DNA from: an uncultured bacterium
Lineage (GTDB): Bacteria > Bacteroidota > Rhodothermia > Balneolales > DATFMH01
Assembly (NCBI GenBank): GCA_963712305.1
Contig: CAVQHI010000001.1
Coordinates: 181,383 to 245,382, forward strand
Direction of reading: 5' to 3'
Length of the DNA: 64,000 nt
In this document: positions 6,052 to 21,007 of the stretch, in pieces
Position numbering within the stretch: the first letter of the stretch is position 1
How the letters are laid out: each line of letters opens with the position of its first letter
Position numbers and translations under genes: made by a program
Notes under the pieces: model-generated
Database searches by the model: none
What the model was told of the DNA's origin: nothing
The model's input: the letters and a program-made list of their open reading frames with translations, nothing else

Positions 6052-9000
6052 TTACTTCAACAGAGTCATCTTTCTGGTCTGAACAAAATCGCCGGCAGAT
6101 AACCGGTATATATATACTCCGCTTGAAAACCTGTTTGCATCAAAAGAGACCTGGTAACGGCCAACTGTCTGTTTTCGATCGATCAGAGTTGCAACGCGCT
6201 GCCCCAGGATGTTATAAATGCTGAGTTGAACATGAACTGCTTTTGAAATGGAATACTTGATATTAGTCGTTGGATTGAAGGGATTCGGATAGTTGTTGCC
6301 CAACTCAAACTTATCAGGTACTGTTTGTTGATTGTTCGATTCAATATCCGTAACCATTTTATTAAGCGTTGCCATTGTCAAACCATTCGATTCAACCGTT
6401 ATGCTAATATTTCCCCCAGACAAATCTGAAGGAGGCAGATATTGTATGACGGCGATACCTCTTGTTGCTTTAATTGACGTAGTGGTCAGACTCCCCGGTC
6501 CGTTGAGATTGAAAGTAAAGGTATGACTTTGGCTGGTGACCAAACGTCCCTCATTGTCAGTCACATAGGCCACGATATCGTAATGCGCATCTGAGGCAGC
6601 AACGATATTATCATCTTTAAAAAAGAGGTTTAATGTCGTACCGTTTGTCCCGCCCGGTATCGATTTCAGTTTAAAAGCAATGTCTTTATGAGCTGCAGTC
6701 AGTTTAGGTACCTCCGTGTTCATCAGGTGACCTACAGAAATGACCGTATCAACTGCCGCAACGGTTCCACTCCAGGTATCGTACCAATCCATAATATAGG
6801 TTCCATCACTCAGATTTGTGATTTTTACAGGAGTGCCGGATATATCGCCTGAAGCGTAGGAATACATCCATCCAAATGCTGTAGAGTCATTTTCTATCCC
6901 ATATCCATCAGTACCTGTTCCGGACACCGTAAAGGTACTACTCGGGCTGTTGGCTAAATAAAGGGAGTCGGCAAATGGTTTCAGCTTGTTATATAGGTCC
7001 AGTCTTGCTGATGTAAATACCGACTTAGTCGTAAAATCCCACCAGAAAGGCGTCGATGCCAGTCCATTCGTCAAACCCGCCCAGAAGGCGTTATGCATCT
7101 CATAGGTATAATCAGAACTGCTTGCTGAAGAGAACATTGAGGTATAACCGGCTTCGCCAAAAATTGCGGGCCTGTTACCCGCTTTTTTAAGGTTCTTCAT
7201 TTCATTTACAGCGTCATATAAGCCGTCCCGGACATTATTCCCATAAGGTCGTGGATAACCCTGAGCCTCGTAATAGTGACGATTGGGCATATCTGCATCA
7301 ATAGATCCACCCGACCATATCGTAGAGCTTCCGAACGAAGCCGTTGTGGCCCGTTTGTGAGGATCGTGATCTTTGAGATACGTATGTACCTTGTTTACCC
7401 ACGCAATAGCCTGATCCGGATGTTGCACATAACCGGTAGTTCCATGGATTTCGTTTATGATTTCCCAGATTCCTAAATTCTCGCTGTATCCCCAGCGTGC
7501 AATCATGTAGCGATATAATTTCTTTTGATATACCCAAGCCAGACTATCTCCATAAAAATTACCGGCGCTGACAATGGTACTATACGGGTTATCCTGGGTA
7601 TATCTTGCATTATTCCACGGCTGCCCCGGAAGACAGAGATAATCGTGCGCCCATATGGCAAACATCATCTTCATGTGTCTTGCATGCAGCCAACTCAATA
7701 TCTGGTCGATTCGTCCACATTTCTGCTGATCATAACGGCCCAAACCTGAACTCATAGATTCAATAAGATTAGTCCCGCCGCCATTGCCCGCGTTGTCATA
7801 CGTACTGTTCCAGTATCCGATAATGTTTACATCGTGCTGTTTTAGCTCATCCAAACCACTTTCTGTGACATTCCAGGGATAGTAAGCCGCCAGACCGTAA
7901 AACGATGTGCTATCAGTATAAGCCAGGTAATTCGGATTCTGTGGCGATATGGTCAGCCAGCCGTGTTGATCGGATTGAGCAGCAGTAAACGTTTTCTTTG
8001 CAGTCTCGCCGGCACCATCCGGGGTTGTCGCAAACACCTGATACTCCCATGATCCAACTTTATCCGGTGCAAAACGAACCTTCCAGGACTGTACATTGTC
8101 ATAATCATCATAAAACCCGTTGACCCATGTCGTATCTCCTTCAGGAGATTTAAAATAAGCATGAACATCAATCTGATCCGGATCATACGGATTATTGTAG
8201 GATGCATCCTGCAGATTCAAAACAACTTCAAATTTCTCATATTCCTGTACATTATCCGAATTAGTACTGTCTACACTAACGGTTGGTGGAACGCCGGGTA
8301 CACGCGTTCTTATACTGACTTCACCCGATGGTGCATGTTCTTCACCTATTGTATCAACCGCCGTTACCATATAGTAATAGGTCGTGTTATTCATTAAACC
8401 ACGATCGTGATATAACGCAGCAGTCGTATCGCCAATTAGCGTTAATGAATTGGCCGTAAAGCTTCCGGATGTGCTCCGGTAAATATTATAATGATCAGTG
8501 ACATCAGGTTTATCCACCGACCAGTTTAAATCGACATGACCGCTATCAACCAACGTAGCTTTCAACCCGGAAACGTTTACGGAAAAACCAGCAATTTTGA
8601 AATTATCGAACTGAATGGTACCCGACTTCGGATCGGTGGTCCCACCATCGAAATACATATAAATCCTGTTTAAAGTGTCGCCTGCAACCAGGTTAAAAGT
8701 GTATGAATGCCACTGATTATCTCCGGGCAGATTTGTCTGTATCCATCCGCCAGACGGATTATCATTATAAATAGGTTTAACGGTATAGACCGTCGCCACA
8801 CTTGATTTTATATCCATTGTGATTTTTGGAGTCCCGGTCACAACAATATTTGCAGGCGGCAAAAAGTTGAATTCGTCCCATTGAGCACTCTGGGCATCCC
8901 TGGTGTAATCAATATTCAGGACACCATTGCTCTCATTTAAATCAAATGTATGAGGAAATTCAGCCCACCATAAGGTATCCCTTTGCCCATTCCACAACGT

Positions 9001-9729: not shown

Positions 9730-10431
9730 TCAACCTATCAACCTTGCCAGAAAAGCAATAGCAGCCGTCTCAGCACGCAACCGGTAGTTGCCCAGAGATA
9801 CGAGCTCGGCGCCGGCGTTTGTGAGTTCCTCAACTTCCTCGTCCGCAAACCCTCCTTCCGGCCCGATCAACACCATCAGCCGGTCATCACTTAGCCAATC
9901 GGTGTTTACGTTGGGAAAACTGTCATGCTTTTCGTGTGCCAAAAGCATGTGAAACGCCCCATATTCATCAATCAGATCAGAAACCGACGGCATAAACCGG
10001 ATCTCCGGCAGCCAGGCGTGCAAAGACTGTTTCATGGCGCTCCTGGCGATCAACTCCAAACGGTCAATTCGTACCCTCTCACGTTCTGAATTCTGGCTTT
10101 GAAACAACACTATTTCCGTTGCTCCCAACTCCACAGACTTTTCTATGGCAAATTCAAGACGCTGACGATTTTTAATGAGTCCAAGAGCCAGGACTCGTTG
10201 TTTTAAAGTAACCCCATCAATCAGTTGCCGTGTTTCACTGACTTCAATGGCAACCTCTTTCTTCGAACATGAAATGATTTGACCATCGAACCATCTCCCC
10301 TTTCCATCAACGACAGTTATGGCATCTCCTTCCTTATACCGCAACACATGGATGGCATGGTGTGCTTCCTCATCCCTCAAATAAACGAGATCTCCTCTAC
10401 ATTGTTCGGGAGGAGCATAAAATAAATTCAT
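9730..10431 (-). CDS. rsmE: 16S rRNA (uracil1498-N3)-methyltransferase RsmE
   Basis: N-terminal PUA-like MNLFYAPPE...EEAHHAIHVLRYKEGD, C-terminal SPOUT motif LIGPEGGFADEEV, and typical length. Confidence 0.88.
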   Translation of the reverse strand: MNLFYAPPEQCRGDLVYLRDEEAHHAIHVLRYKEGDAITVVDGKGRWFDGQIISCSKKEVAIEVSETRQLIDGVTLKQRVLALGLIKNRQRLEFAIEKSVELGATEIVLFQSQNSERERVRIDRLELIARSAMKQSLHAWLPEIRFMPSVSDLIDEYGAFHMLLAHEKHDSFPNVNTDWLSDDRLMVLIGPEGGFADEEVEELTNAGAELVSLGNYRLRAETAAIAFLARLIG

Positions 10432-10518
10432 GGTTTTTTATAACTGACTGATAATAACACCAGGTAAAATGGATTTAAGAACACGGATTCGCGGTATAGG
10501 ATTCAGGAAGATTGGACA

Positions 10519-10725
10519 TCAATAAATATCTCCGGGTCGAAAGGCTGTCTCACCAGTTCGCAACACCTTTTCTACATACGGATAACACAACCCGCATCCA
10601 CGACCGCATATTTTATTACATACAAGCTCGTCGGTCGTTTTAATATTATGTGCCTGAGCGTATTCTTTGATCTCTTTGAACGTTTTACAGTGACAGACAC
10701 ACTTGACAACGGTCTTGTCAGTCAT
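10519..10725 (-). CDS. BFD-like [2Fe-2S]-binding domain protein
   Basis: 68 aa with cysteine pattern CVCHC...CGRGCGLC, typical of bacterioferritin-associated-ferredoxin-like domains. Confidence 0.7.
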   Translation of the reverse strand: MTDKTVVKCVCHCKTFKEIKEYAQAHNIKTTDELVCNKICGRGCGLCYPYVEKVLRTGETAFRPGDIY

Positions 10726-10734
10726 AAGTACACT

Positions 10735-11916
10735 CTATGATTTAAAATGCTTACCTAATTTAAGATCCTGTCCCTGGTAGTTGCTGTTTATTTCTTCGCC
10801 GTATATAAATTCGGGCGTTTCCGTGTTTGGTTCAAATACCATCCTAAAGAACGTCTGGCCATCCTCGATCAGAAACGGGACATCGTGAGATCGAACTTCG
10901 AGTACAGCACGCGCTCCGCCTGCTGCAACAGAACCACCAAAGCCTGAATCAAAGAAACCGGCATAATGAGTGCGTAGTTCCCCGGAGCCGGTATCGTAAG
11001 GAACCATTTCTGCAGCCAATTGTGCCGGAATTCGGCAGCGTTCTTTAGAAGAAAAGATATAAAAGGCCTCTGGTTCAAGGATAACGGCATTGCCATGATC
11101 CGCATAAATAGGTTCCCAGAAATCCACGACGTTATAATAATTGACACGGTCAAGATCGATCAGGTCACGGTTTTTACGTGCTTTATAGCCAATGATTTTA
11201 TCATTCGTCGAATTCAAACTCACACTCATGAATAGTCCGTCTTGTATCTTCAGATCCTTGTTACTAAGCGGCTTGCGCTGATCATCAAATAAGACCGGAT
11301 CCACCTGGTGAACCTTCGCAATATCCTGATCTGTCAATCGTGCTGATCCGTGTCTGATCCGCAACTGGTTTAGCCGGTGCCCGGTATGAACTCTGATTGA
11401 AAAGGTCTTGGGTACGACTTCAAGATATAGCTTACCCGAATAACCAGGTGTAATTTCTTCGAAACGATGCGAATAGTCTGTTATAACCCGTGTAAAAATA
11501 TCAAGCCGCCCGGTCGAGCTTTTGGGATTCGTCCTGGCGCTGAGCGGTTCGCGAAAATTCAGGCCTTTGCTGCCGGAACTTTGTATCAGCTCCCCATAAT
11601 CAGGAAGATGCACTTCTTCGAGCAACGGAATGATATAGGTGCAATTAGGTTCAAGAACGGCCCCATTAACGATGGAAAACGAATGCTGCGTGAGCCTCCC
11701 CAGCTTCTCTTCCACACTTTCACTTTCCGGCAGAAAGCTGCAACGTACCCTGTAAGCCGTTTCTCCAAGCCGGAGATCGATTGAATTCGGCTGAAGCTGG
11801 TTATCCTCGATGGGATAATTCTCCGGTGCGGTGATCAGGGATTCATCGATCAGCGTTCGTAATGTCTGAACAGGAAGGATGCCTGGTCTTGTGAGATTCA
11901 ATGTCTTAACCGCCAT
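10735..11916 (-). CDS. 2'-deoxycytidine 5'-triphosphate deaminase (long DCD-type, tandem dUTPase-like folds)
   Basis: LQPNSIDLRLGETAYRVRCSF and a second half with ELRTHYAGFFDSGFG. About 390 aa, as in the long DCD family. Confidence 0.75.
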   Translation of the reverse strand: MAVKTLNLTRPGILPVQTLRTLIDESLITAPENYPIEDNQLQPNSIDLRLGETAYRVRCSFLPESESVEEKLGRLTQHSFSIVNGAVLEPNCTYIIPLLEEVHLPDYGELIQSSGSKGLNFREPLSARTNPKSSTGRLDIFTRVITDYSHRFEEITPGYSGKLYLEVVPKTFSIRVHTGHRLNQLRIRHGSARLTDQDIAKVHQVDPVLFDDQRKPLSNKDLKIQDGLFMSVSLNSTNDKIIGYKARKNRDLIDLDRVNYYNVVDFWEPIYADHGNAVILEPEAFYIFSSKERCRIPAQLAAEMVPYDTGSGELRTHYAGFFDSGFGGSVAAGGARAVLEVRSHDVPFLIEDGQTFFRMVFEPNTETPEFIYGEEINSNYQGQDLKLGKHFKS

Positions 11917-12076
11917 ATCTATTTAAAGTGTGGAGTGAATAAAAGTACTTGAAGTCGAGCTCAAACTTAAAAGTTAAAATCAATTAAAGGTAATATGGGT
12001 TTTTTAAATTCTGACTCTCCAAATCAGCTACCCAAACTTTAAGTACTCTTAAGTATTTTAGGCACTCTTAAGTATT

Positions 12077-12547
12077 TCAAATGACACCCGCCAGTTCGTG
12101 AATTCGGTTCCATTCCTTTTCTGTAACCGGAGTTATGGACAAACGGAACCGTTTTAACAGCACCATATTTTTGAGGATTGGATCCTGCTTAATCTGGCCA
12201 CGTGTAACGGATTTGCCGAATTTTTTGTCAAATGTGACATCAACCAGTATCCATCTCGGATCATCTTCCGGACTCGTCGGATCAAAATAGTCGCTGTCCG
12301 GGTTGAACTGGGATTTGTCCGGATGCGGATCAGATGAGACCACCATTGTTCCCACGATTTCAGGTGGTTTTACATTCGAATGATAAAAAAGCACGCCATC
12401 CCCTTTTTTCATCTCATCACGCATGATATTCCGGGCTTCATAATTTCTCACACCATCCCACGATGTTGTCTGATTATCCGCATTCTTCAAATCATCAATG
12501 CTGAAGGCGTACGGCTCGGATTTCATCAGCCAATAATTTCGCTTCAT
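12077..12547 (-). CDS. EVE (PUA-like) domain protein
   Basis: NYWLMKSEPYAFSIDDL...SWDGVRNYEARNIMRDEMKKGDGVLFYHSN, the canonical EVE domain opening. 156 aa, stand-alone. Confidence 0.85.
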   Translation of the reverse strand: MKRNYWLMKSEPYAFSIDDLKNADNQTTSWDGVRNYEARNIMRDEMKKGDGVLFYHSNVKPPEIVGTMVVSSDPHPDKSQFNPDSDYFDPTSPEDDPRWILVDVTFDKKFGKSVTRGQIKQDPILKNMVLLKRFRLSITPVTEKEWNRIHELAGVI

Positions 12548-12766
12548 GTTACCTGTCTTTTATCAATGAATTCTGAACTGTGGGAAAGTAAGGAATTATG
12601 CAGGTTTTTCCGTGGATTGAAATCGATATCTTCACGAAAACGATGACACATCCATTTCCAAATTATCACGTCATTCTCTTGGGGATTTCCCTGGAAAATA
12701 ACGACGATAGAGAGAATGGATCGTTTTACCCGGGGCTACATTTTTTTCGAGAACATCTCTTGTACG

Positions 12767-13609
12767 TTATATTTCCAAATCTTCAACCGGACTTTTCACA
12801 TCTTTTAAAGTCCGGGAACTTACATGGGTATATATCTGCGTGGTAGAAATATGCTTATGCCCGAGCAACTCCTGGATAAACCGGGTATCGGTGCCATTAT
12901 CGAGTAAATGAGTGGCAAAGCTGTGTCGTAATGAATGCGGTGTTACTTTCTTTTTGATACCACACATTTTTCTGTGTTTTCTCATTAGAGCCTGAATGGA
13001 TGCGGCAGAATATTTACCACCGGATTGGCCTTCGAAAAGATATTCTTCAGGCCGATACTCCTTTACATATTCCCTCAGGAGAGACAAAACCTTATCCGAT
13101 AATATGGAGTAACGGTCTTTTTGTCCTTTTCCCTGATCGATACGTATTTGCATTCGGTCTGAATCAATATCTTTGATTTTAAGGTTCAAAATCTCTCCCA
13201 CTCGTAAACCGGCTGAATAGCATACGGTGAAAATAGCTTTGTGTTTGATATTGGTGAATGAATTTAGAAACCGCTGCACCTCTTCAACCGACAGGACAAT
13301 TGGAATACGACTGGGTTTTTTCATTTTGATGTTGAAATCAAAATCCACAGACTCGTTCAACACCTCTGTATATAGGAATTTAACCGAGGCCAATAACTGC
13401 TTCATCATGGAATAGCCGTAACCCAACTCTTTCCTGGCATAGTGAAAAAAATCCTCCAGAACCCGGGGAGTTACTTCATTGCATTGACGAACATTTACAT
13501 AATCCAGAAAAATAGTCAATCCATTGAGATAGGCACGCAATGTACGGTCGCTATAATTTTTCAGCGTAAGCTTATGTTCGTACTTTGATATTAATTCCGA
13601 TTTCCTCAT
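12767..13609 (-). CDS. Tyrosine site-specific recombinase, Xer/IntI-related but short (280 aa), without the IntI-specific insertion
   Basis: Catalytic signature AGLRVGEI...GKGQKDR...HSLRHSFATHLLDNGTDTRFIQELLGHKHISTTQIYTHV, with a C-terminal VKSPVEDL tail resembling the IntI V.SPLD end. Only ~60 aa separate GKGQKDR from HSLRH. Confidence 0.9.
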   Translation of the reverse strand: MRKSELISKYEHKLTLKNYSDRTLRAYLNGLTIFLDYVNVRQCNEVTPRVLEDFFHYARKELGYGYSMMKQLLASVKFLYTEVLNESVDFDFNIKMKKPSRIPIVLSVEEVQRFLNSFTNIKHKAIFTVCYSAGLRVGEILNLKIKDIDSDRMQIRIDQGKGQKDRYSILSDKVLSLLREYVKEYRPEEYLFEGQSGGKYSAASIQALMRKHRKMCGIKKKVTPHSLRHSFATHLLDNGTDTRFIQELLGHKHISTTQIYTHVSSRTLKDVKSPVEDLEI

Positions 13610-13630
13610 TTTATTTTCGTTATTGTAATA

Positions 13631-13701
13631 ATAACATGAACAAAACTTACGTACGAAGCAAGGATAACATGAATTGAGTTCGTGTTATGCTATTGTTGGG
13701 C
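13631..13701 (+). other. attI-like recombinase-proximal site (direct repeats, a 10-5-10 inverted pair, GTTATGC and GTTGGGC boxes)
   Basis: ATAACATGAA at 13631-13640 and 13664-13673. TTCGTGTTAT at 13679-13688 is its inverted partner. GTTGGGC at 13695-13701 is the exact complement of the R'' box at 15815. Confidence 0.45.
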
Positions 13702-13745
13702 GTCATTAAAGAGAACCCGAATAAACAATGAACAGAATTGAATAA

Positions 13746-15440
13746 ATGAAAGCAAACGAAACAAAAGTAGAAGACTTTTTATCTTCAAATAAGACACAAT
13801 TTGTAATTCCAGTTTACCAAAGAAATTATGATTGGTCGACAAGTCAATGCAAACAACTTTTAGACGATATTTTGGAAGTTGGAACAAGTAACAAAATGAA
13901 TGCTCACTTTATTGGTAGTGTTGTTTACGTTCACGATGATGTTTATACATCTTCACGAATCAAAGAACTGACTGTAATTGATGGACAGCAAAGATTGACC
14001 ACGCTGACTTTAATTTATTTGGCTCTTTATCGTTTGGCAATTGAAATTGGAGACAAAGGACTTGAAGCAGAAATTTCTGAAACCTATCTGACAAACAAGT
14101 TTGCACCCGAAGAAGAAAAACTAAAACTACGACCAACTGAAAATAACGACAAAGCCATAAAATACCTTTTGAGAAGTGATAAGGACGAAGAATTTAGCGA
14201 CTTCTCAAAAGTGATAGACAATTTCAATTATTTCAACAGTCGAATAAGTGAAGAAAATTTAGAGTTCGTTCTCAAAGGACTCGCAAAACTAATGTTTGTT
14301 GAAATCTCGCTTGACAGAGAAAAAGACGACCCACAAAGAATTTTTGAGAGTTTAAACTCCACAGGTCTTGAATTATCACAAGCGGACTTAATTAGAAATT
14401 ACATTTTAATGGGTCTTAATCGCAGAGACCAAAATAAAATTTATAACAACTATTGGGAAATCATAGAGAAACTTGCAAAAGATGAAACCCTTAATACAAG
14501 CAAAGTATCGGATTTTATTAGAGATTATTTGACTTTGGTAAATAATAAAATACCGAATAAAAGCAAGGTCTATTTAGAGTTTAAGGCGAAATTTCCAACA
14601 ACTGATTTACAAGAATTAGAAACTAATCTCTCGCCAATAAAATCACTTGTTAAGTTTTACAATAAACTGCTCAACCCCAAAAATGAATTTGACAAAGACA
14701 TAAGATTACAACTTGAATATATAAACCGACTTGAAGTAAATGTAGCTTATCCGTTTTTGATGAAAGTCTATGAAGATTATTCAGAAAACATAATTGACAA
14801 AGCAACATTTATCAAAGTATTGGATTTTATTCAATCTTTTGCTTGGAGACGATTTATAGTTGGCTTACCCACAAACGCTCTCAACAAAATATTTATGACA
14901 CTTTATGAAAAAGTGGATAAAGACGATTATTTGTTGTCATTACAAAAATGGTTGCTTAAAAGACCAGGTTCGCAACGTTTCCCGAAAAACAAGGAAGTTA
15001 TTGAAAGTCTTAAACTAAAAGATGTCTACAACATAAAGTCCAAAAACAGAACTTATCTACTTGAGCGACTTGAAAATTTTGATAATAACGAGCCTGTAAT
15101 AATAGAAGGGAACACAGACATAACAATTGAACACATTTTCCCCCAAAATCCTGACCCAAAATGGAAAGTTGATTTAGGAGCAGATGAATACAATTTGATT
15201 AAAGAAACCTATCTAAACACAATCGGTAATTTGACATTATCAGGCAATAACGGAAAGCTTGGTAATAAACCATTTGCGTTTAAAAGAGATTTAGAGAATG
15301 CAGGATATAAAGACAGTCGTTTATGGCTCAATAAATATTTATCAATTTCCGAAAAGTGGGATAAAGCAGAAATTGAAAGACGTTTTGACCTTCTTGCTGA
15401 ACGATTTTTGAAAATTGGCAAATGCCACAAATCGAATTAG
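13746..15440 (+). CDS. GmrSD-family type IV restriction endonuclease (N-terminal DUF262 ParB-like NTPase, C-terminal DUF1524 HNH-like nuclease)
   Basis: DUF262 motifs FVIPVYQRNYDW and IDGQQRLTTLTL. DUF1524 region has TIEHIFPQNP...GNLTLSGNNGKLGNKPF. Confidence 0.85.
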   Translation: MKANETKVEDFLSSNKTQFVIPVYQRNYDWSTSQCKQLLDDILEVGTSNKMNAHFIGSVVYVHDDVYTSSRIKELTVIDGQQRLTTLTLIYLALYRLAIEIGDKGLEAEISETYLTNKFAPEEEKLKLRPTENNDKAIKYLLRSDKDEEFSDFSKVIDNFNYFNSRISEENLEFVLKGLAKLMFVEISLDREKDDPQRIFESLNSTGLELSQADLIRNYILMGLNRRDQNKIYNNYWEIIEKLAKDETLNTSKVSDFIRDYLTLVNNKIPNKSKVYLEFKAKFPTTDLQELETNLSPIKSLVKFYNKLLNPKNEFDKDIRLQLEYINRLEVNVAYPFLMKVYEDYSENIIDKATFIKVLDFIQSFAWRRFIVGLPTNALNKIFMTLYEKVDKDDYLLSLQKWLLKRPGSQRFPKNKEVIESLKLKDVYNIKSKNRTYLLERLENFDNNEPVIIEGNTDITIEHIFPQNPDPKWKVDLGADEYNLIKETYLNTIGNLTLSGNNGKLGNKPFAFKRDLENAGYKDSRLWLNKYLSISEKWDKAEIERRFDLLAERFLKIGKCHKSN

Positions 15441-15832
15441 AAGAAAGAGATGAAAACAATGAAGTGAACATATTTGAAGCAGAAGACCCGAAATTTAAGA
15501 AATTGGAGTATGCGATTTTCTTCGACCAAAAAATTGAAGTTAATCAAGTTGCAAAATTATATGTAGAAGTTTTTAAGCAACTTTTTGAGTTGCAACCAGA
15601 AACATTTTTCACGACTGACTTGGCAGAAAAGATAATCTTAACAAAGAATCCAAAAGAAGGAAATCCGAGACAAGCAGTTCCAATAAACGACACATATTTC
15701 ATTGAAGGGAATATTGACAACATTGGAAAATTTGAGAAGATAAAACACGCATTGACAATTTTTGATTCAGAAGACGAATTGACAATAAAGTATGCCGGAA
15801 AAAGAATAACGAACGCCCAACAATGTGTATAG
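15422..15832 (+). CDS. Hypothetical 136-aa protein; either a separate gene overlapping the GmrSD gene by 19 nt or its frameshifted C-terminal extension
   Basis: ATG sits in GGCAAATGCC inside the last codons of the upstream ORF. No family recognised. The 3' end overlaps the attC-like R'' box. Confidence 0.5.
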   Translation: MPQIELEERDENNEVNIFEAEDPKFKKLEYAIFFDQKIEVNQVAKLYVEVFKQLFELQPETFFTTDLAEKIILTKNPKEGNPRQAVPINDTYFIEGNIDNIGKFEKIKHALTIFDSEDELTIKYAGKRITNAQQCV

Positions 15833-15946
15833 TGCATGCGGGTTTCATCGATTATCGAGAGTTTGTGGCTCGTAAAAAAGGTGCGGTGTAAGCTGATAGG
15901 AAATCGATTCGTAATCCCGCACTACACCATACACTAACCGTTGGGC
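15815..15946 (+). repeat. attC-like recombination site 1 (132 nt imperfect hairpin)
   Basis: GCCCAAC-AAT-GTGTAT-AGTGCATGCGGG ... CCCGCACTACACC-ATACAC-TAACC-GTTGGGC. This gives a perfect 7-bp R box, an unpaired spacer, a paired L-like box and bulged bases. The central part also pairs (ATCGATT... / ...AATCGAT). Confidence 0.7.
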
Positions 15947-15949
15947 GGC

Positions 15950-16270
15950 ATGCAAAACATCCTGCATATGGATACAGATGATTTATCAATAGAAGCTTAC
16001 GATGGAATTTTAATAGAGGCTGAGAAATTAACTCATGATTTGACTTTGCATTTTGGCCTATTATCTGGCGATTGTAGAAATGAGACTGAATACATTGATA
16101 AAGCAGAGAAACTTACCAGAGAAATAATGCAAGTGGATGATTGGGAGTTAGATGATCTGTTTTGGGGGAATCCACCGGACAAAGAAAATTTGAATTCAAC
16201 ACTTCAAAAAATTATCAGTAATATTGAGAAGATTAAGAAAATTCCGATAGAGAAACGACATTATGACTAA
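15950..16270 (+). CDS. Hypothetical acidic protein (~106 aa), first gene of a two-gene cassette
   Basis: The ORF track starts at TTG 15941, inside the attC-like R' box; ATG 15950 is the more plausible start. No family recognised. The stop overlaps the next start (ATGACTAA). Confidence 0.5.
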   Translation: MQNILHMDTDDLSIEAYDGILIEAEKLTHDLTLHFGLLSGDCRNETEYIDKAEKLTREIMQVDDWELDDLFWGNPPDKENLNSTLQKIISNIEKIKKIPIEKRHYD

Positions 16271-16766
16271 AAAAGAGATTAAGCAAAAAGAGGAGAAACT
16301 TCTTGAAATGACAGGAGCCTTTTGTGCTCAAAAATTAGATGATGATTATTTTCAGTTATGTGAAAAGTTAATTAAAAAGCTCGGGAGAAAAAGGGAAGTT
16401 CCTTTTCAGAGAGGTAAGATGGAGATTTGGGCAGCTGCTGTGGTTTATGCTATAGGGTCGATTAATTTTCTATTTGATAAGTCGTTTGAGCCATATATGA
16501 CAGCGGAACAGATTAGTGAATATTTCGGAACAAAAAACTCAACGGTATCGAATAAAGCCAGACAGATTAAAGATATGTTTGACATGTGGCATTTCAGCCC
16601 TGAATTTTCGACACAGAAAATGACAGAAGATAATCCGTTTAATAATATGGTAATGGTTGACGGATTTATTGTACCTCTGGATACTTTGCCAGCAGATTTA
16701 CAAGAGATGGTTAAGGATGCCAGGTCACGTGGAGAAGATATTGAATTTCAAACAGAACAGAGATAA
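16263..16766 (+). CDS. Hypothetical 167-aa protein with a helix-turn-helix-like segment
   Basis: MTAEQISEYFGTKNSTVSNKARQIKDMF resembles an HTH. Translationally coupled to the upstream ORF (8-nt overlap). Confidence 0.55.
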   Translation: MTKKEIKQKEEKLLEMTGAFCAQKLDDDYFQLCEKLIKKLGRKREVPFQRGKMEIWAAAVVYAIGSINFLFDKSFEPYMTAEQISEYFGTKNSTVSNKARQIKDMFDMWHFSPEFSTQKMTEDNPFNNMVMVDGFIVPLDTLPADLQEMVKDARSRGEDIEFQTEQR

Positions 16767-16773
16767 TGCCAGC

Positions 16774-16882
16774 TGCCGACACGCGGTACAGTTAATAAGG
16801 GTTTCAGTGGTTTGCGAAGCAAAGCAATCCGCTTCAACTTTTCTTGTACCTTAACAGGTAAAAAGCCCGCCATCCGTTGTGC
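16774..16882 (+). repeat. attC-like site 2 (109 nt, degenerate R'' box)
   Basis: Begins 8 nt after the stop codon. The arm ACGCGG-TACAGTTAATAAGG pairs imperfectly with CCTTAACAGGTA...CCCGCCAT. It ends in GTTGTGC at 16876-16882. R'' reads TGCCGAC, a poor match to RYYYAAC. Confidence 0.4.
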
Positions 16883-16914
16883 CTAATAAAATGAACTATT
16901 AAATATTTCCATAT

Positions 16915-17496
16915 ATGAGAAAAGTATTGTTTCTGTTTACAGCAATTTTGATTTTCAATAGTTGTAGCACTTCATCAACAACTAACAAACCAACTTTAAA
17001 TGATTATAAAATTGGAGAAAAGTGGGTTTGGAATTGGAAACGTACAGTCGATGGAGAGGTTCGTGCGGAAGGAGAAGATATACAGGAGGTGGTAGACTAT
17101 AATGGAGTTTTAGGGCTTTGGAATGGTGTTGATACCGTCCAGATTTCGACTATTTTAGACCAAAAGCAAACCAGCACACCCTTTCGTGATTGGCCCTTGT
17201 ATGTAGGGAAAAAATGGAAATATGAATCAGAATGGGAAAATAATGAAGGTACGAAAGGGAAAACCAGTCAGGACGTTGAAATCGTTTCATTTGAAGAACT
17301 AAATGTTGTAGCCGGGAAATTTCTGGCTTACAAAATAGAATACAAGGGAATTGTAACAAATTCCAGAGGTTATAAAGGAGAGATGTCTGATACGTGGTGG
17401 TATTCCCCTGAATTAAAAACATATATCAAGCATGTAAATAATGATGGCTATGGTCTTTATACAAATGAACTAACTCATTATTCGAAAGCGCGGTAG
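16915..17496 (+). CDS. Hypothetical lipoprotein (193 aa), single-gene cassette
   Basis: Signal plus lipobox-like LIFNSCSTSS. No family recognised. Confidence 0.6.
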   Translation: MRKVLFLFTAILIFNSCSTSSTTNKPTLNDYKIGEKWVWNWKRTVDGEVRAEGEDIQEVVDYNGVLGLWNGVDTVQISTILDQKQTSTPFRDWPLYVGKKWKYESEWENNEGTKGKTSQDVEIVSFEELNVVAGKFLAYKIEYKGIVTNSRGYKGEMSDTWWYSPELKTYIKHVNNDGYGLYTNELTHYSKAR

Positions 17497-17505
17497 AAAA
17501 CCTAT

Positions 17506-17635
17506 GCACAACTATATAGAAAAATAATAGCCATGGTAGAGATAAGTTCATGGGTTTGAGCCCGCTTTAACTTTCTCGTAACTATATAGAAAATTGCCAC
17601 ATAGCCGGCTACTATTCTTATACTCAACGTTGCGC
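17506..17635 (+). repeat. attC-like recombination site 3 (130 nt imperfect hairpin)
   Basis: GCACAAC-TATATAGAAAAATAATAGCC ... GGCTACTATTCTTATACTCAAC-GTTGCGC. R boxes are complementary at 6/7 positions, and the arms pair with bulges. Starts 10 nt after the stop codon. Confidence 0.65.
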
Positions 17636-17983
17636 AACTGCATCCAATTAGCTTTTTGCTTGCTGATATTTCCTCTTTGGTAATTTCACTTTTAAGTCTG
17701 GGTTTGTCATTTGCGTAATCATACAACCAGGATACTTCCATAGAGTCGTACATTTTACAAATTCTCATTTATCCTGCCACATTATTAATTTTTCGTCTTC
17801 AATTCCGTAGGTTTACATACCTCCAATAATTATAACCGCTATTATAATAAGTGGTTATACCCAACTTTTTTTGTTTCAAGACGATTACGCATAAATTTTA
17901 TTTTTGTAACATAGTTTAAAATCAAAAATTAAGTGTGACATTTACTCAGATAGAAAGTGCTAATTTGAACTAAATAGGTACAA

Positions 17984-18430
17984 ATGAAAACAAACGAAGA
18001 AATTTTTATAATATTAATAGAAGAAGGCTTCAGTAAAGGTGATGTTTCTGTTTTTGACACCTATTCTTCGCCCGCGTTTGTTGAACATCAATATGGATTC
18101 TTCCCTCCCAATGTAGAAGGCGTTAAAAAGGCAATTAATAATCTACACTACGCTTTTCCAGATTTTTCGCTGACCATAGACGACATGATAACGGGCGGCT
18201 CCAAAGTTTGGGGAAGGATGACAGGACGAGGGACTCACAAAAACAAATTTGGACCGATGTTTCCAACCGGTAAAAAATTTGAAATTGCCGTAATCGATAT
18301 TATGCGATTTGAAACCGGGAAACTAATTGAACACTGGGGTGTCCCAGATAAATTGGCTCTCATGGAACAACTTGGGATGAAAGCTCCGCCAAAACTTATT
18401 ATGAAAATTATGAGCTTGCTTAACAGGTGA
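17984..18430 (+). CDS. SnoaL-like ester cyclase family protein
   Basis: FVEHQ...NLHYAFPDFSLTIDDMITGGSKVWGRMTGRGTH...FEIAVIDIMRFETGKLIEHWGVPD is typical of predicted ester cyclases (NTF2-like fold). Confidence 0.7.
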   Translation: MKTNEEIFIILIEEGFSKGDVSVFDTYSSPAFVEHQYGFFPPNVEGVKKAINNLHYAFPDFSLTIDDMITGGSKVWGRMTGRGTHKNKFGPMFPTGKKFEIAVIDIMRFETGKLIEHWGVPDKLALMEQLGMKAPPKLIMKIMSLLNR

Positions 18431-18511
18431 GAATAAAAAGAAGAATTTTTTTTTACAACGCTTATCATAATATCTACACCTGTATTTGCCAAACTTAAAT
18501 CAAAACATACA

Positions 18512-18994
18512 ATGAGAACGAAAAATGGGTTTAAAGTATATGCAGGTGAAGCCAGGTTTGGAAAGCACTACAAGATGAAAGGTGTTACCCACAACATACT
18601 GGACATCAAAATATCCGGAAATGATACTGAAAAAGATTTAGCTGTATTTGAGCAAACCGGACTCAGTCCTAACGGTGGTCCACCTTTGCATATGCATCCA
18701 TTTCAGGATGAATGGTTCTATGTTATAGATGGTGAGTACTTGTTTCAGGTTGGTGAGGAGAAATTTCAAATGAAATCAGGTGACACGGTTTTTCTTCCGA
18801 GGAATGTTCAGCACGCTTTTATTCAATTGACAGAAAAGGGAAAGATGATAGTTTCTTATTTACCAGCAGGAAAGATGGAAGCATTTTTTCAAGTGACTGA
18901 TCAATGGACTTCACCTCCATCGAAAGAAGAAATTGAAAAAGTTTTCGATGACCACGATATGAGAGTTGTTGGGGCACCATTGAAAACAGACTAA
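18512..18994 (+). CDS. Cupin domain protein
   Basis: GGPPLHMHPFQDEWFYVIDGEYLFQVGEEKFQMKSGDTVFLPRNVQHAF (cupin motifs 1 and 2). Confidence 0.75.
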   Translation: MRTKNGFKVYAGEARFGKHYKMKGVTHNILDIKISGNDTEKDLAVFEQTGLSPNGGPPLHMHPFQDEWFYVIDGEYLFQVGEEKFQMKSGDTVFLPRNVQHAFIQLTEKGKMIVSYLPAGKMEAFFQVTDQWTSPPSKEEIEKVFDDHDMRVVGAPLKTD

Positions 18995-19019
18995 GAAATA
19001 ATATTTTTAAAATACGAAT

Positions 19020-19047
19020 TCACAACACATGGTATAGTGCATACATG
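19020..19047 (+). repeat. Orphan attC-like top-arm half-site
   Basis: TCACAAC-ACATGGTATAGTGCATACATG shares CAAC plus an 11-nt run GTATAGTGCAT with the top arm of site 1. No complementary bottom arm or GTTRRRY box follows. Confidence 0.35.
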
Positions 19048-19111
19048 TCTTAGAGGTTTTTGAATACCTTTCCGGACCAGGCCTCACAAACGAAAGCTAA
19101 AATCCAAGAGA

Positions 19112-19828
19112 ATGACAGAAAAAACAGAGAAGTTAGACAACTATTTAGATATCCATTACATACACAGAAGTAATTGGTTAAGAGCAGCTGTTCTTGGTGC
19201 TAATGATGGAATTTTATCAACAGCAAGTCTTGCCATTGGAGTCGCAGCAGCTACTCATTTAAGAGAGCCTATAATTCTCGCTACTTTGGCTGGATTAGTT
19301 GCCGGAGCTTTATCTATGGCCGCTGGAGAATATGTTTCTGTAAGTTCTCAAACAGATGTGGAAAAAGCTGACGTTGAGCGTGAAAAACAAGAACTGAATG
19401 AAATGCCCGAAATTGAATTGCATCGATTAGCAGATATCTATGAAAAAAGAGGATTGAAAAAAGAAACGGCTCTGACGGTAGCTAAAGAATTATCAGAACA
19501 CGATGTATTAGGAGCACATGTCAGAGATGAATTAGGAATTAATGAAATTAGTCAGGCTAAGCCGATACAGGCTGCCTTGGCATCTGGCGCATCATTTACT
19601 GTAGGAGGTATTTTGCCTCTAATGGTAACTCTATTTTTACCGTTAGTAAGTATGGAGTATTCTCTATATGGATTTGCCCTTTTCTTCCTGATTATTTTGG
19701 GTGCCTTAGCTGCAAAAACAGGAGGTTCAAGTATAAAGAAAGCAGTTATTAGAATAACATTTTGGGGAACGGTCGCTATGGGATTGACCGCTTTAGTTGG
19801 ATATTTCTTTAACGTGAATATTGGATAA
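19112..19828 (+). CDS. VIT1/CCC1-family iron/manganese transporter
   Basis: NWLRAAVLGANDGILSTASLAIGVAAA, a central cytoplasmic helical region, and C-terminal TM helices. Confidence 0.85.
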   Translation: MTEKTEKLDNYLDIHYIHRSNWLRAAVLGANDGILSTASLAIGVAAATHLREPIILATLAGLVAGALSMAAGEYVSVSSQTDVEKADVEREKQELNEMPEIELHRLADIYEKRGLKKETALTVAKELSEHDVLGAHVRDELGINEISQAKPIQAALASGASFTVGGILPLMVTLFLPLVSMEYSLYGFALFFLIILGALAAKTGGSSIKKAVIRITFWGTVAMGLTALVGYFFNVNIG

Positions 19829-19849
19829 TTATATCATGAAGTTAATAAA

Positions 19850-21007
19850 ATGAAACTTACCCGACTATTTAACGAGTTTTTTGACAGCGAGAAATCGGGT
19901 GGCATTTTGCTGATCTGTTGCACAGCCGTTTCGCTTTTACTTGCAAACTTTTTCCTCAAGGACAGCTATATCCAGTTGTGGCACTTTCAAATTGGCGGAC
20001 AAACATTAACACATTGGATTAATGACGGACTGATGACTGTTTTCTTTTTGCTCATCGGTCTGGAACTTGAACGGGAAATTTACATCGGAGAACTTACAAG
20101 TTTAAAGAACGCATCGCTTCCAATTTTTGCGGCGCTTGGTGGTATGCTTGTTCCGGCTGGACTTTTTTTACTGTTCAACTTCGGCACAGCAACACAAGCA
20201 GGTGCAGGTATTCCAATGGCTACGGACATCGCATTTGCAATCGGCATACTTTCTCTTCTCGGTAATCGTATTCCTGCATCACTTAAAATTTTACTAACAG
20301 CAATAGCAGTTATTGACGACTTGGGGGCAATCATTGTCATTGCAGTATTTTACACAAGTTCATTAGCCTTCACCAATTTGTTTTTAGCAATTGGCATTTT
20401 CGGACTGTTGCTAATCTTAAACCGATTGAAAGTTAACAACCTTATTCCATATCTCATTGGTGGAGTAGCAATGTGGTATTTTATGCTTCATTCAGGAGTG
20501 CATCCAACAATCACAGGAGTCTTGTTGGCATTTACAATTCCTTTTGGTGACGGAGGTGAAAAATCGCCTTCTTTCAATCTGCAACATTGGCTTCACAAAC
20601 CTGTTGCGTTTTTCATTTTACCCTTGTTTGCATTAGCTAACACTTGCATCAGCATTGACAGCGGTTGGCAGGCAGGCTTAACCCAATCAAACAGTATTGG
20701 AATTTTTGCAGGGCTTATAGTTGGCAAACCGCTTGGAATTTTTCTTTTCGGTTTCATAACTGTTTCGCTTGGACTTAGCACATTGCCAGAGGACTTGAAA
20801 TGGAAACAAATTATTGGTGTGGGACTTCTTGCCGGAATTGGTTTTACGATGTCAATCTTTATTACGCTACTTGCGTTTGACAATCCCGAACTAATCACTC
20901 AATCAAAAATTACAATCCTGATTGCCTCATTTCTTGCAGGAGCACTTGGGTATTTATGGCTTCGCATGACGCTAACAGAACAAATTACAACGACAGACAT
21001 TGAATGA
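19850..21007 (+). CDS. nhaA: Na+/H+ antiporter NhaA
   Basis: GGILLICCTAVSLLLAN, INDGLMTVFFLLIGLELEREI, AVIDDLGAIIVIA; polytopic, 385 aa. Confidence 0.9.
   Translation: MKLTRLFNEFFDSEKSGGILLICCTAVSLLLANFFLKDSYIQLWHFQIGGQTLTHWINDGLMTVFFLLIGLELEREIYIGELTSLKNASLPIFAALGGMLVPAGLFLLFNFGTATQAGAGIPMATDIAFAIGILSLLGNRIPASLKILLTAIAVIDDLGAIIVIAVFYTSSLAFTNLFLAIGIFGLLLILNRLKVNNLIPYLIGGVAMWYFMLHSGVHPTITGVLLAFTIPFGDGGEKSPSFNLQHWLHKPVAFFILPLFALANTCISIDSGWQAGLTQSNSIGIFAGLIVGKPLGIFLFGFITVSLGLSTLPEDLKWKQIIGVGLLAGIGFTMSIFITLLAFDNPELITQSKITILIASFLAGALGYLWLRMTLTEQITTTDIE

Follow-up and report, generated by a model that had tools for sequence, protein, structure and literature searches.

We analysed a 64,000-nucleotide (nt) stretch of genomic DNA from an uncultured bacterium of the order Balneolales (GenBank assembly GCA_963712305.1, contig CAVQHI010000001.1, positions 181,383 to 245,382; hereafter the window), in which a short tyrosine recombinase gene stands next to what is probably an integron-type array of gene cassettes. 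The recombinase, a putative cassette integrase of 280 amino acids (aa) matching Pfam Phage_integrase and SAM_4, is encoded on the minus strand at 12767–13609. It is followed by an attI-like region (13610–13697, no strand assigned) ending in the crossover triplet GTT (13695–13697), itself the start of a GTTGGGC box (13695–13701) located 86 nt from the recombinase start codon. The original prediction, made from the sequence alone, had described both the minus-strand gene and the box in this way, and both were confirmed. It had further claimed that only plus-strand open reading frames (ORFs) come after the box; the ORF list bears this out for ORFs of real size to the right of the recombinase. The AT-richness claimed for the region was likewise found, with a GC content of 32–38% over 13–20 kb vs ~44% elsewhere in the window.

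Cassette 1 (13696–15940, plus strand) carries a GmrSD-type restriction enzyme gene (13746–15440; Pfam GmrSD_N/C, PADLOC Orf5/HEC-06) and an overlapping 136-aa ORF (15422–15832). It ends in attC-like site 1 (15809–15952, minus strand), with R″ box GCCCAAC at 15815–15821 and R′ box GTTGGGC at 15940–15946. Cassette 2 (15941–16876, plus strand) holds a small ORF (~15950–16270) and a DUF6398 protein gene (16263–16766). Its end is marked by the decayed attC-like site 2 (16765–16882, no strand assigned), which retains the R′ end GTTGTGC at 16876–16882 and has a mutated R″ box. Cassette 3 (16877–17629, plus strand) encodes a 193-aa putative lipoprotein (16915–17496) and is closed by attC-like site 3 (17500–17639, minus strand), the last intact site of the array, with R″ GCACAAC at 17506–17512 and R′ GTTGCGC at 17629–17635. 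An AT-rich stretch with plus-strand genes follows (17630–19060), containing a SnoaL-like gene (17984–18430) and a cupin gene (18512–18994) identified by Pfam, and a relic half-site (19018–19060) with a weak profile match; VIT and NhaA genes lie to its right, at 19112–21007, and could be ascribed neither to the array nor to the core genome. The accessory-type cargo anticipated for the region was thus recovered by Pfam in the GmrSD, DUF6398, SnoaL and cupin proteins.

We compared the recombinase with sequence models and with known integron integrases (IntI). Its best NCBIfam match was the XerA-type model XerA_Arch (NF040815), named ‘site-specific tyrosine recombinase/integron integrase’ by NCBI, and the score of 230.7 bits against a cutoff of 220 places the protein within XerA. 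The integron-integrase model TIGR02249 gave 199.4 bits, under its cutoff of 265, and the match was split in two pieces. The best structural relative by sequence was again XerA (5hxy). In the alignment to VchIntIA (2a3v), residues 14–182 and 205–276 correspond to residues 13–181 and 247–318, and where VchIntIA and IntI1 carry their insertion, the recombinase has 43 aa fewer. Four IntI were aligned, namely VchIntIA (sequence checked against 2a3v), IntI1 and two other annotated integron integrases; all carry 32 + 11 extra residues between GKGxK and HxLRH which the window recombinase and all its relatives lack. Hence the TIGR02249 score and the 43-aa gap both indicate that the IntI additional domain near patch III, the I2 helix region, is missing. 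The original prediction had proposed exactly this absence, and a search for a canonical insertion by correct alignment revealed none. The catalytic residues R136, K161, H225, R228, H251 and Y260 were invariant in 33 family members. The predicted IntI-like C-terminal tail was also recognized: an SP(L/I)D/E motif is common to the recombinase and IntI and does not occur in XerD. A structure predicted from a shallow alignment was poor in the catalytic half, with predicted local distance difference test (pLDDT) values below 50 for residues 195–272, and was not used. Finally, the gene does not behave like that of a housekeeping dimer resolvase acting at a single duplex dif in a stable context: it always lies beside a hypervariable array, its chromosomal context differs between genera, and some metagenome-assembled genomes (MAGs) carry two copies.

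A one-genome-per-species scan provided ~36 related loci, with recombinases 68–99% identical, nearly all from Balneolaceae (Gracilimonas, Balneola and Fodinibius); for comparison, we turned them all to the orientation of the window. An exact-match look-up of the recombinase sequence returned no contig. The region between start codon and GTT was conserved in at least 32 Balneolaceae loci, and sequences just past GTT were unrelated between loci. In all, this conservation up to GTT, with unrelated sequence beyond, was seen in ~35 genome loci and 26 metagenome contigs. Even in locus L035 (94% identical), homology with the window at the nucleotide level extended only from the recombinase stop codon (12767) to ~13705. 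The 26 contigs with this attI pattern came from Joint Genome Institute (JGI) metagenomes, and 19 of them had a distinct first cassette. Recombinase, attI-like region and array were linked in every Balneolaceae locus examined, so that, as in integrons, an attI adjoins the integrase gene and cassettes join it at GTT.

Within the attI-like region, we noted three copies of a ~10-bp motif, ATAACATGAA, in direct orientation at 13631–13640 and 13664–13673 and inverted at 13679–13688. The core of the motif is ACAT, AAGT or TGAT and switches together in all three copies between lineages. Such concerted change is the behaviour expected of recombinase-binding sites, and the copies are candidates for that role. 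Past the recombinase stop codon, no conserved motif was found that could act as a second site bounding recombinase and attI as a minimal mobile unit. Two arrays contain a partial second attI together with the first ~55 nt of the recombinase gene (L015, reverse-complement 13661–13804, and L021, 20010–20114), which may be a tandem-platform remnant or the result of an attI rearrangement. In L013, the recombinase and an array of at least 9.7 kb stand between a dCTP-deaminase-like gene and an EVE-domain gene; in the window (9730–13609 compared with L013) the platform is placed after the EVE gene. Therefore the platform has moved by one gene between these lineages.

To describe the sites, covariance models were preferred over simpler scans: a plain box-plus-energy scan gave 60 matches on the array side vs 63 on the control side, a stricter structural scan gave a threefold enrichment only, and both were abandoned; a MAFFT alignment of mixed-length sites left several of them misaligned. 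Model R1 was constructed from 13 bottom-strand sites of the ~130-nt size class and scanned over the window and 36 loci. It returned 73 matches, which all lay on the same strand and upstream of the recombinase. Model R2, rebuilt from the R1 matches and applied at E ≤ 0.01, returned 94 matches corresponding to 89 sites, every one on the array side and in a single orientation. With neither model was any family site found in ~300 kb of the opposite flanks. The family model had no match in 43 other loci with more distant recombinases and detected none of the class 1 integron attC sites. On the top strand, the architecture reads aacTnn-[NNNYAAC]-AAT-[GKNTATAGNNNAT...]-variable-[...ANNNNCATANMC]-nAACC-[GTTRNNN]-nCAATT. 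Sites range in length from 57 to ~207 nt, most commonly ~130 nt.

The original prediction had placed three hairpins in the window. Two of them were upheld by the family model: across the 64 kb with filters off, R2 scored site 1 (84 bits) and site 3 (67 bits) alone. The bottom strand of site 1 (15815–15946) folds with DNA parameters at −24.9 kcal/mol (z = −3.65), and the covariance scores are 87.2 (R1) and 84.1 (R2) bits. Its fold reproduces the architecture that had been proposed, with the R stem, an unpaired AAT opposite TAACC, a 6-bp L stem and one bulged base. Site 3 (17506–17635) closes at its R boxes and is weakly stable (z = −0.8), with covariance scores of 46.5 (R1) and 67.3 (R2) bits (E ~1e-15). 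The third hairpin did not stand. Site 2 (16774–16882) folded no better than shuffles (z = +0.25 and +0.94), had no RYYYAAC box and gave no covariance-model match even with filters off, and its candidacy as a hairpin was rejected on these grounds. A sequence-only profile yielded weak half-site matches at 16779–16813 (E = 6.5) and 19018–19060 (E = 7.9), each insignificant alone, both lying within the array, correctly oriented and directly past stop codons. The second resembles the 5′ half of site 1 and had no covariance-model match.

We then examined pairing in the alignment of 73 sites. The L stem was 93.8% paired, with both-side changes in 13 of 15 pairs, and the covariation score was 0.42 vs 0.16 for shuffles and at most 0.10 for slid controls. 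The 89 sites thus share the layout of integron attC sites, that of imperfect palindromes R″-L″...L′-R′ with an AAC/GTT core, an unpaired central spacer and a variable terminal loop, and the covariation of pairs supports their stems. G·T wobbles were conserved on the bottom strand at three positions (54/73, 67/73 and 53/73 sites), the same positions being A·C mismatches on the top strand. The bottom strand was the more stable one in 58 of 73 sites (Wilcoxon p = 4e-8). This favoured strand is opposite to the cassette mRNA. The unpaired spacer was consistently asymmetric, 5–6 nt vs 3 nt. Since an asymmetry confined to one strand is meaningless for duplex DNA, the wobbles and the greater stability of the bottom strand favour this strand, folded and single, as the putative substrate. 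The bulged bases typical of attC had also been predicted, and here the outcome was divided: site 1 has one, and most family sites do not. An extrahelical base was absent from the 15-bp modelled stem in 42 of 73 sites and a single extra base was present in ~11 of 73, so most sites lack the extrahelical bases that an integron integrase recognizes.

The first bases of an integron cassette originate in the attC of that same cassette, so R″ pairs with the start of its own cassette and not with the downstream box. The same relation was observed here. In 39 of 68 sites, the seven variable R″ bases matched their own cassette start at six positions or more, vs 2 of 68 for a match of at least 6/7 to the adjacent downstream box and 1.4% for random pairs. 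Complementarity between R″ and cassette start often reached 9–10 nt. In the window, GTTGGGCGT at the start of cassette 1 pairs with ACGCCCAAC of site 1, with complementarity over the 9 nt that follow the attI G, and the cassette 3 start GTTGTGC (16876) pairs with GCACAAC of site 3 (17506–17512). The GTTGTGC end of site 2 is thus a real boundary, because it is complementary to the inner box of site 3, and site 2 is a decayed attC-like site at a genuine cassette boundary. The pairing pattern is the signature of integron cassettes and suggests that the units would be circularisable.

The right end of the array is less clear-cut. An R″ complementary to TTGCGC was sought as the end of a cassette 4, and no GCGCAAC inner box was found downstream of site 3. 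The original prediction extended the array to 19047; this could not be shown, the last model-detected site being site 3. The SnoaL and cupin genes (17984–18994), which lie beyond the last intact site, are probably decayed cassettes. The outer box of site 3 falls within a perfect palindrome, GTTGCGCAAC (17629–17638). A minus-strand ORF of 88 aa (within 17502–17768) runs into site 3 from beyond it and may be a truncated gene fragment. No Rfam family matched in the window or in five arrays.

Cassette presence or absence in relatives had been suggested as a check, and array content indeed differed between genomes sharing both flanks. Five loci (L011, L014, L019, L020 and L009) have ~10 kb of flank in common up to the junction and are different thereafter. 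Loci L029 and L030 match at 93% identity through the recombinase and at 92% on the far side of the array. Between these flanks they have unrelated arrays of 5.1 and 3.3 kb, and homology resumes just past the last site. Single cassettes were also gained or lost. For P0123, a recombinase 45% identical to that of the window, four marine metagenome contigs (L087–L090) have flanks 99.98–100% identical and either carry or lack a 1120-bp cassette whose insertion point is exactly the attI GTT, ahead of a GmrSD cassette. This cassette carries a PDDEXK_4-like ORF and a family attC, and the 12 nt GTTGTAGCCAAT occur at both ends of the insertion. Similarly, contig L082 matches the window at 99.76% identity to the right of 15928, the break falling between ACC and GTTGGGCGGC. 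Its positions 1–743 hold a high-GC cassette resembling adenylate kinase, with another attC, which replaces the GmrSD cassette of the window (13696–15940), and homology starts at the left boundary of cassette 2. As in integrons, cassette content at a fixed platform thus varies between close relatives.

Over all arrays, 108 ORFs pointed away from the recombinase vs 17 in the other direction, and GC content was 34.8% vs 40.2% in the flanks. The cargo comprised 89 Pfam families among 104 ORFs. Among the matches to defence systems were GmrSD, a SIR2-pAgo, restriction-modification of types II and III, PD-Lambda-5, a PycC-like cyclase and AbiL-like or PtuA-like ATPases; many small enzymes were encoded as well. 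We also noticed an ORF-less mini-cassette of ~130 nt, with a conserved loop GAATTCGCTYCGCTCTTC and covarying stems followed by a second hairpin (GTGCCGGGCTAAGTTCAG...). Its 13 copies occur in arrays only and always on the same strand, often first at attI and up to three per array. They were found in L011 (locus positions 7611–7628, 8854–8871 and 9889–9906), L013, L020, L003, L010, L014 and L022, and not in the window. The mini-cassette matched no Rfam family and might function as a promoter or terminator, encode a small RNA or represent an empty attC.

Outside the close relatives, a Bacteroidales MAG (L053, 9215–19480) encodes a recombinase 40% identical to that of the window, with an N-terminal extension of ~260 aa and again no insertion. 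An attI-like sequence, ACTATTGTT/GTGCACAATT, lies 40 nt past the end of this gene. Downstream of the recombinase gene and co-oriented with it are 12 or more sites belonging to the same family, in an inverted layout. In a library of 1.8 billion proteins, the nearest clusters all lacked the insertion, and many had N-terminal extensions. Four MAG contigs labelled Virgibacillus, Salinimicrobium or Saprospiraceae (L002, L006, L034 and L036) carry recombinases 80–86% identical to the Balneolaceae one, as a result of either mis-binning or horizontal transfer of the platform. More distant homologues, 32–40% identical, were present in Acidobacteria and Proteobacteria MAGs (L060–L063, L070, L079 and L080), in several copies per genome and sometimes as two or three recombinase genes side by side. 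These loci have no family sites and therefore probably represent a different kind of element.

Every structural feature of integrons that we tested is present at these loci except the integrase additional domain and the extrahelical bases. We consider it very likely (probability about 0.85) that the locus is a chromosomal integron-type cassette platform served by the short Xer-like recombinase. In the corresponding model, the recombinase, transcribed divergently from the array, would bind the attI-like region upstream of its own gene. Recombination would take place within GTT, between this region and attC-like sites folded as imperfect hairpins from the bottom strand. Cassettes would be excised as circles, which would restore a perfect R stem of 10–13 bp, and could be re-inserted at attI. 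Choice of strand and orientation might be ensured by the three bottom-strand G·T wobbles and the asymmetric spacer (5–6 vs 3 nt). The expected outcome is arrays of co-oriented genes, for the most part accessory or defence-related, whose content differs from one close relative to the next.

Several points weigh against this reading. Catalysis by the short recombinase, a single-stranded substrate, resolution by replication and the cleavage position within GTT are predicted from sequence patterns. The IntI additional domain is held necessary for attC recombination, at least as cited in PMC9668308 and PMC4889954. Pair counts came from a model-fitted alignment and are biased towards the modelled structure, even if the margin is large. 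Most loci derive from MAGs. The window itself retains no more than two intact sites, with site 2 decayed and the array lacking a defined right end. In the tree described below, IntI are represented by four gammaproteobacterial sequences and Xer by two outgroups only. In canonical integrons, the two features missing here, the additional domain and the extrahelical bases, interact (MacDonald et al. 2006, as cited in PMC8138268), which makes their joint absence coherent.

The original prediction left two readings side by side: a Xer-like clade that uses attC-type folded sites, or a cluster of attC sites lacking an integron integrase (CALIN) beside an unrelated integrase. The linkage, the 89 sites in one orientation and the cassette variability support the former. 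For the latter, the array would be moved by a canonical IntI encoded elsewhere, the neighbouring Xer-type or island integrase having nothing to do with it. It is true that the recombinase passes the XerA model and fails the integron-integrase model. A search bearing on a trans-acting canonical intI, confined to the ~1.3 Mb of the fetched loci, found no IntI-insertion-like sequence. Yet the recombinase adjoins the array in every locus, with a conserved junction that ends at GTT; the binding-type motifs by the crossover change in step with the recombinase lineage; and recombinases of other lineages, only 40–45% identical, again adjoin arrays of the same family. Because recombinase, attI and array are linked everywhere, this explanation fails, and we regard it as very improbable. 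By IntegronFinder criteria, the locus would formally be a CALIN, or nothing, depending on whether the published attC model recognized its sites.

A somewhat less remote alternative, still improbable, is site-specific exchange between duplex GTT core sites, Xer- or pdif-like, in which the hairpins would be incidental or would serve as transcription terminators. The resemblance of the enzyme to Xer and XerA would fit such a scheme, as would the inverted motif pair of attI, which recalls a double-stranded core site, and canonical IntI are described as still capable of double-stranded reactions (PMC4792948). Duplex recognition does not explain why stem sequences vary freely while pairing is kept, nor why wobbles are confined to a single strand and the bottom strand has the greater stability; moreover, the left halves of the sites are unlike the left half of attI. 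Terminators are further contradicted by the position of the wobbles, on the strand opposite to the cassette mRNA. The duplex explanation thus fails because of the strand-specific wobbles and the free covariation. Low GC content, accessory cargo and the different chromosomal contexts of the recombinase in different genera might also be accounted for by a conventional genomic island that integrated once, with the palindromes as repetitive extragenic palindrome (REP)- or terminator-type repeats. Against it, the repeats occur inside arrays only and in one orientation, each can pair with the beginning of the unit it belongs to, conserved flanks enclose arrays that have been replaced, and units are gained and lost singly at GTT. 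An island fails to explain these single-cassette gains and losses, and we judge it extremely improbable.

The integron-type platform proposed here is most readily compared with sedentary chromosomal integrons such as the Vibrio cholerae superintegron with its VchIntIA integrase and VCR attC sites. Both have a divergent integrase gene, an adjacent attI and a GTT crossover. Both have co-oriented cassettes that end in imperfect palindromes with AAC...GTT boxes, an unpaired spacer and a variable loop. In both, sites are alike within a lineage, the position is fixed per clade with variable cassettes, and the cargo includes anti-phage genes. Unlike these integrons, the Balneolaceae integrase is without the ~43-aa domain, most of its sites are without extrahelical bases, the sites have an R stem of 10–13 bp and conserved G·T wobbles, and the hosts belong to Balneolota/Bacteroidota. 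Complete integrons have been reported to be rare in Bacteroidetes (PMC9024848).

On the protein side, the closest counterparts are the ‘integron-like’ simple tyrosine recombinases of Smyshlyaev et al. 2021 (PMC8138268) and XerA-type proteins: the recombinase passes NF040815 and shares the IntI tail. That classification deals with proteins only, whereas the recombinase here is tied to cassette arrays. In the searchable papers, we found no cassette arrays or attC-type sites tied to insertion-less ‘integron-like’ members. The layout of L053 is like that of the inverted integrons of Spirochaetes, in which the integrase gene is co-oriented with the cassettes. It differs from them by an enzyme without the insertion and with the ~260-aa extension, and the layout of the window is the classical divergent one. 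An enzyme of Xer type that works on folded DNA without the IntI domain has a precedent in XerCD, which integrates the CTX phage via a folded single-stranded attP. That case involves a single phage site recombined with dif by host housekeeping recombinases, and no cassette array. The pdif modules of Acinetobacter plasmids are, as here, discrete gene modules bounded by Xer-type sites. Their 28-bp sites are duplex, alternate in orientation and show no hairpin covariation, and the modules have neither a dedicated attI nor a recombinase beside them.

In a rough neighbour-joining tree, the insertion-less clade (75% bootstrap) was sister to the four canonical IntI (100%), and the two together stood apart from XerA and XerD (98%). 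The sampling of the tree is thin, and the insertion-less state could reflect either ancestral absence or secondary loss. On balance, we favour, with some reserve, the view that these loci form a separate integron lineage, widely distributed among Balneolaceae and extending to Bacteroidales, whose minimal Xer-like integrase lacks the IntI domain and whose folded attC sites lack extrahelical bases. Such a lineage might be a surviving ancestral stage or an independent route to the same mechanism. No published description of such a cassette system was found in the literature covered, outside which many subscription journals lie, and a prior description is possible.

IntI is defined, and detected, by its additional domain (PMC4889954, PMC9668308 and PMC9024848), and tools requiring this domain could not report the locus as a complete integron. 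Some attC clusters reported as integrase-less may have an overlooked integrase. The arrays, with pAgo, restriction-modification, Pycsar-like and GmrSD genes, are a source of candidate defence genes, and the smaller enzyme with its simpler sites could serve as a basis for structure-specific recombination tools. If our reading is true, the system would offer a simple comparison for studying how folded single-stranded DNA became the substrate of a Xer-like enzyme. The additional domain would then not be required for integron-type cassette capture, and integron-type systems would extend into phyla where complete integrons have been reported to be rare.

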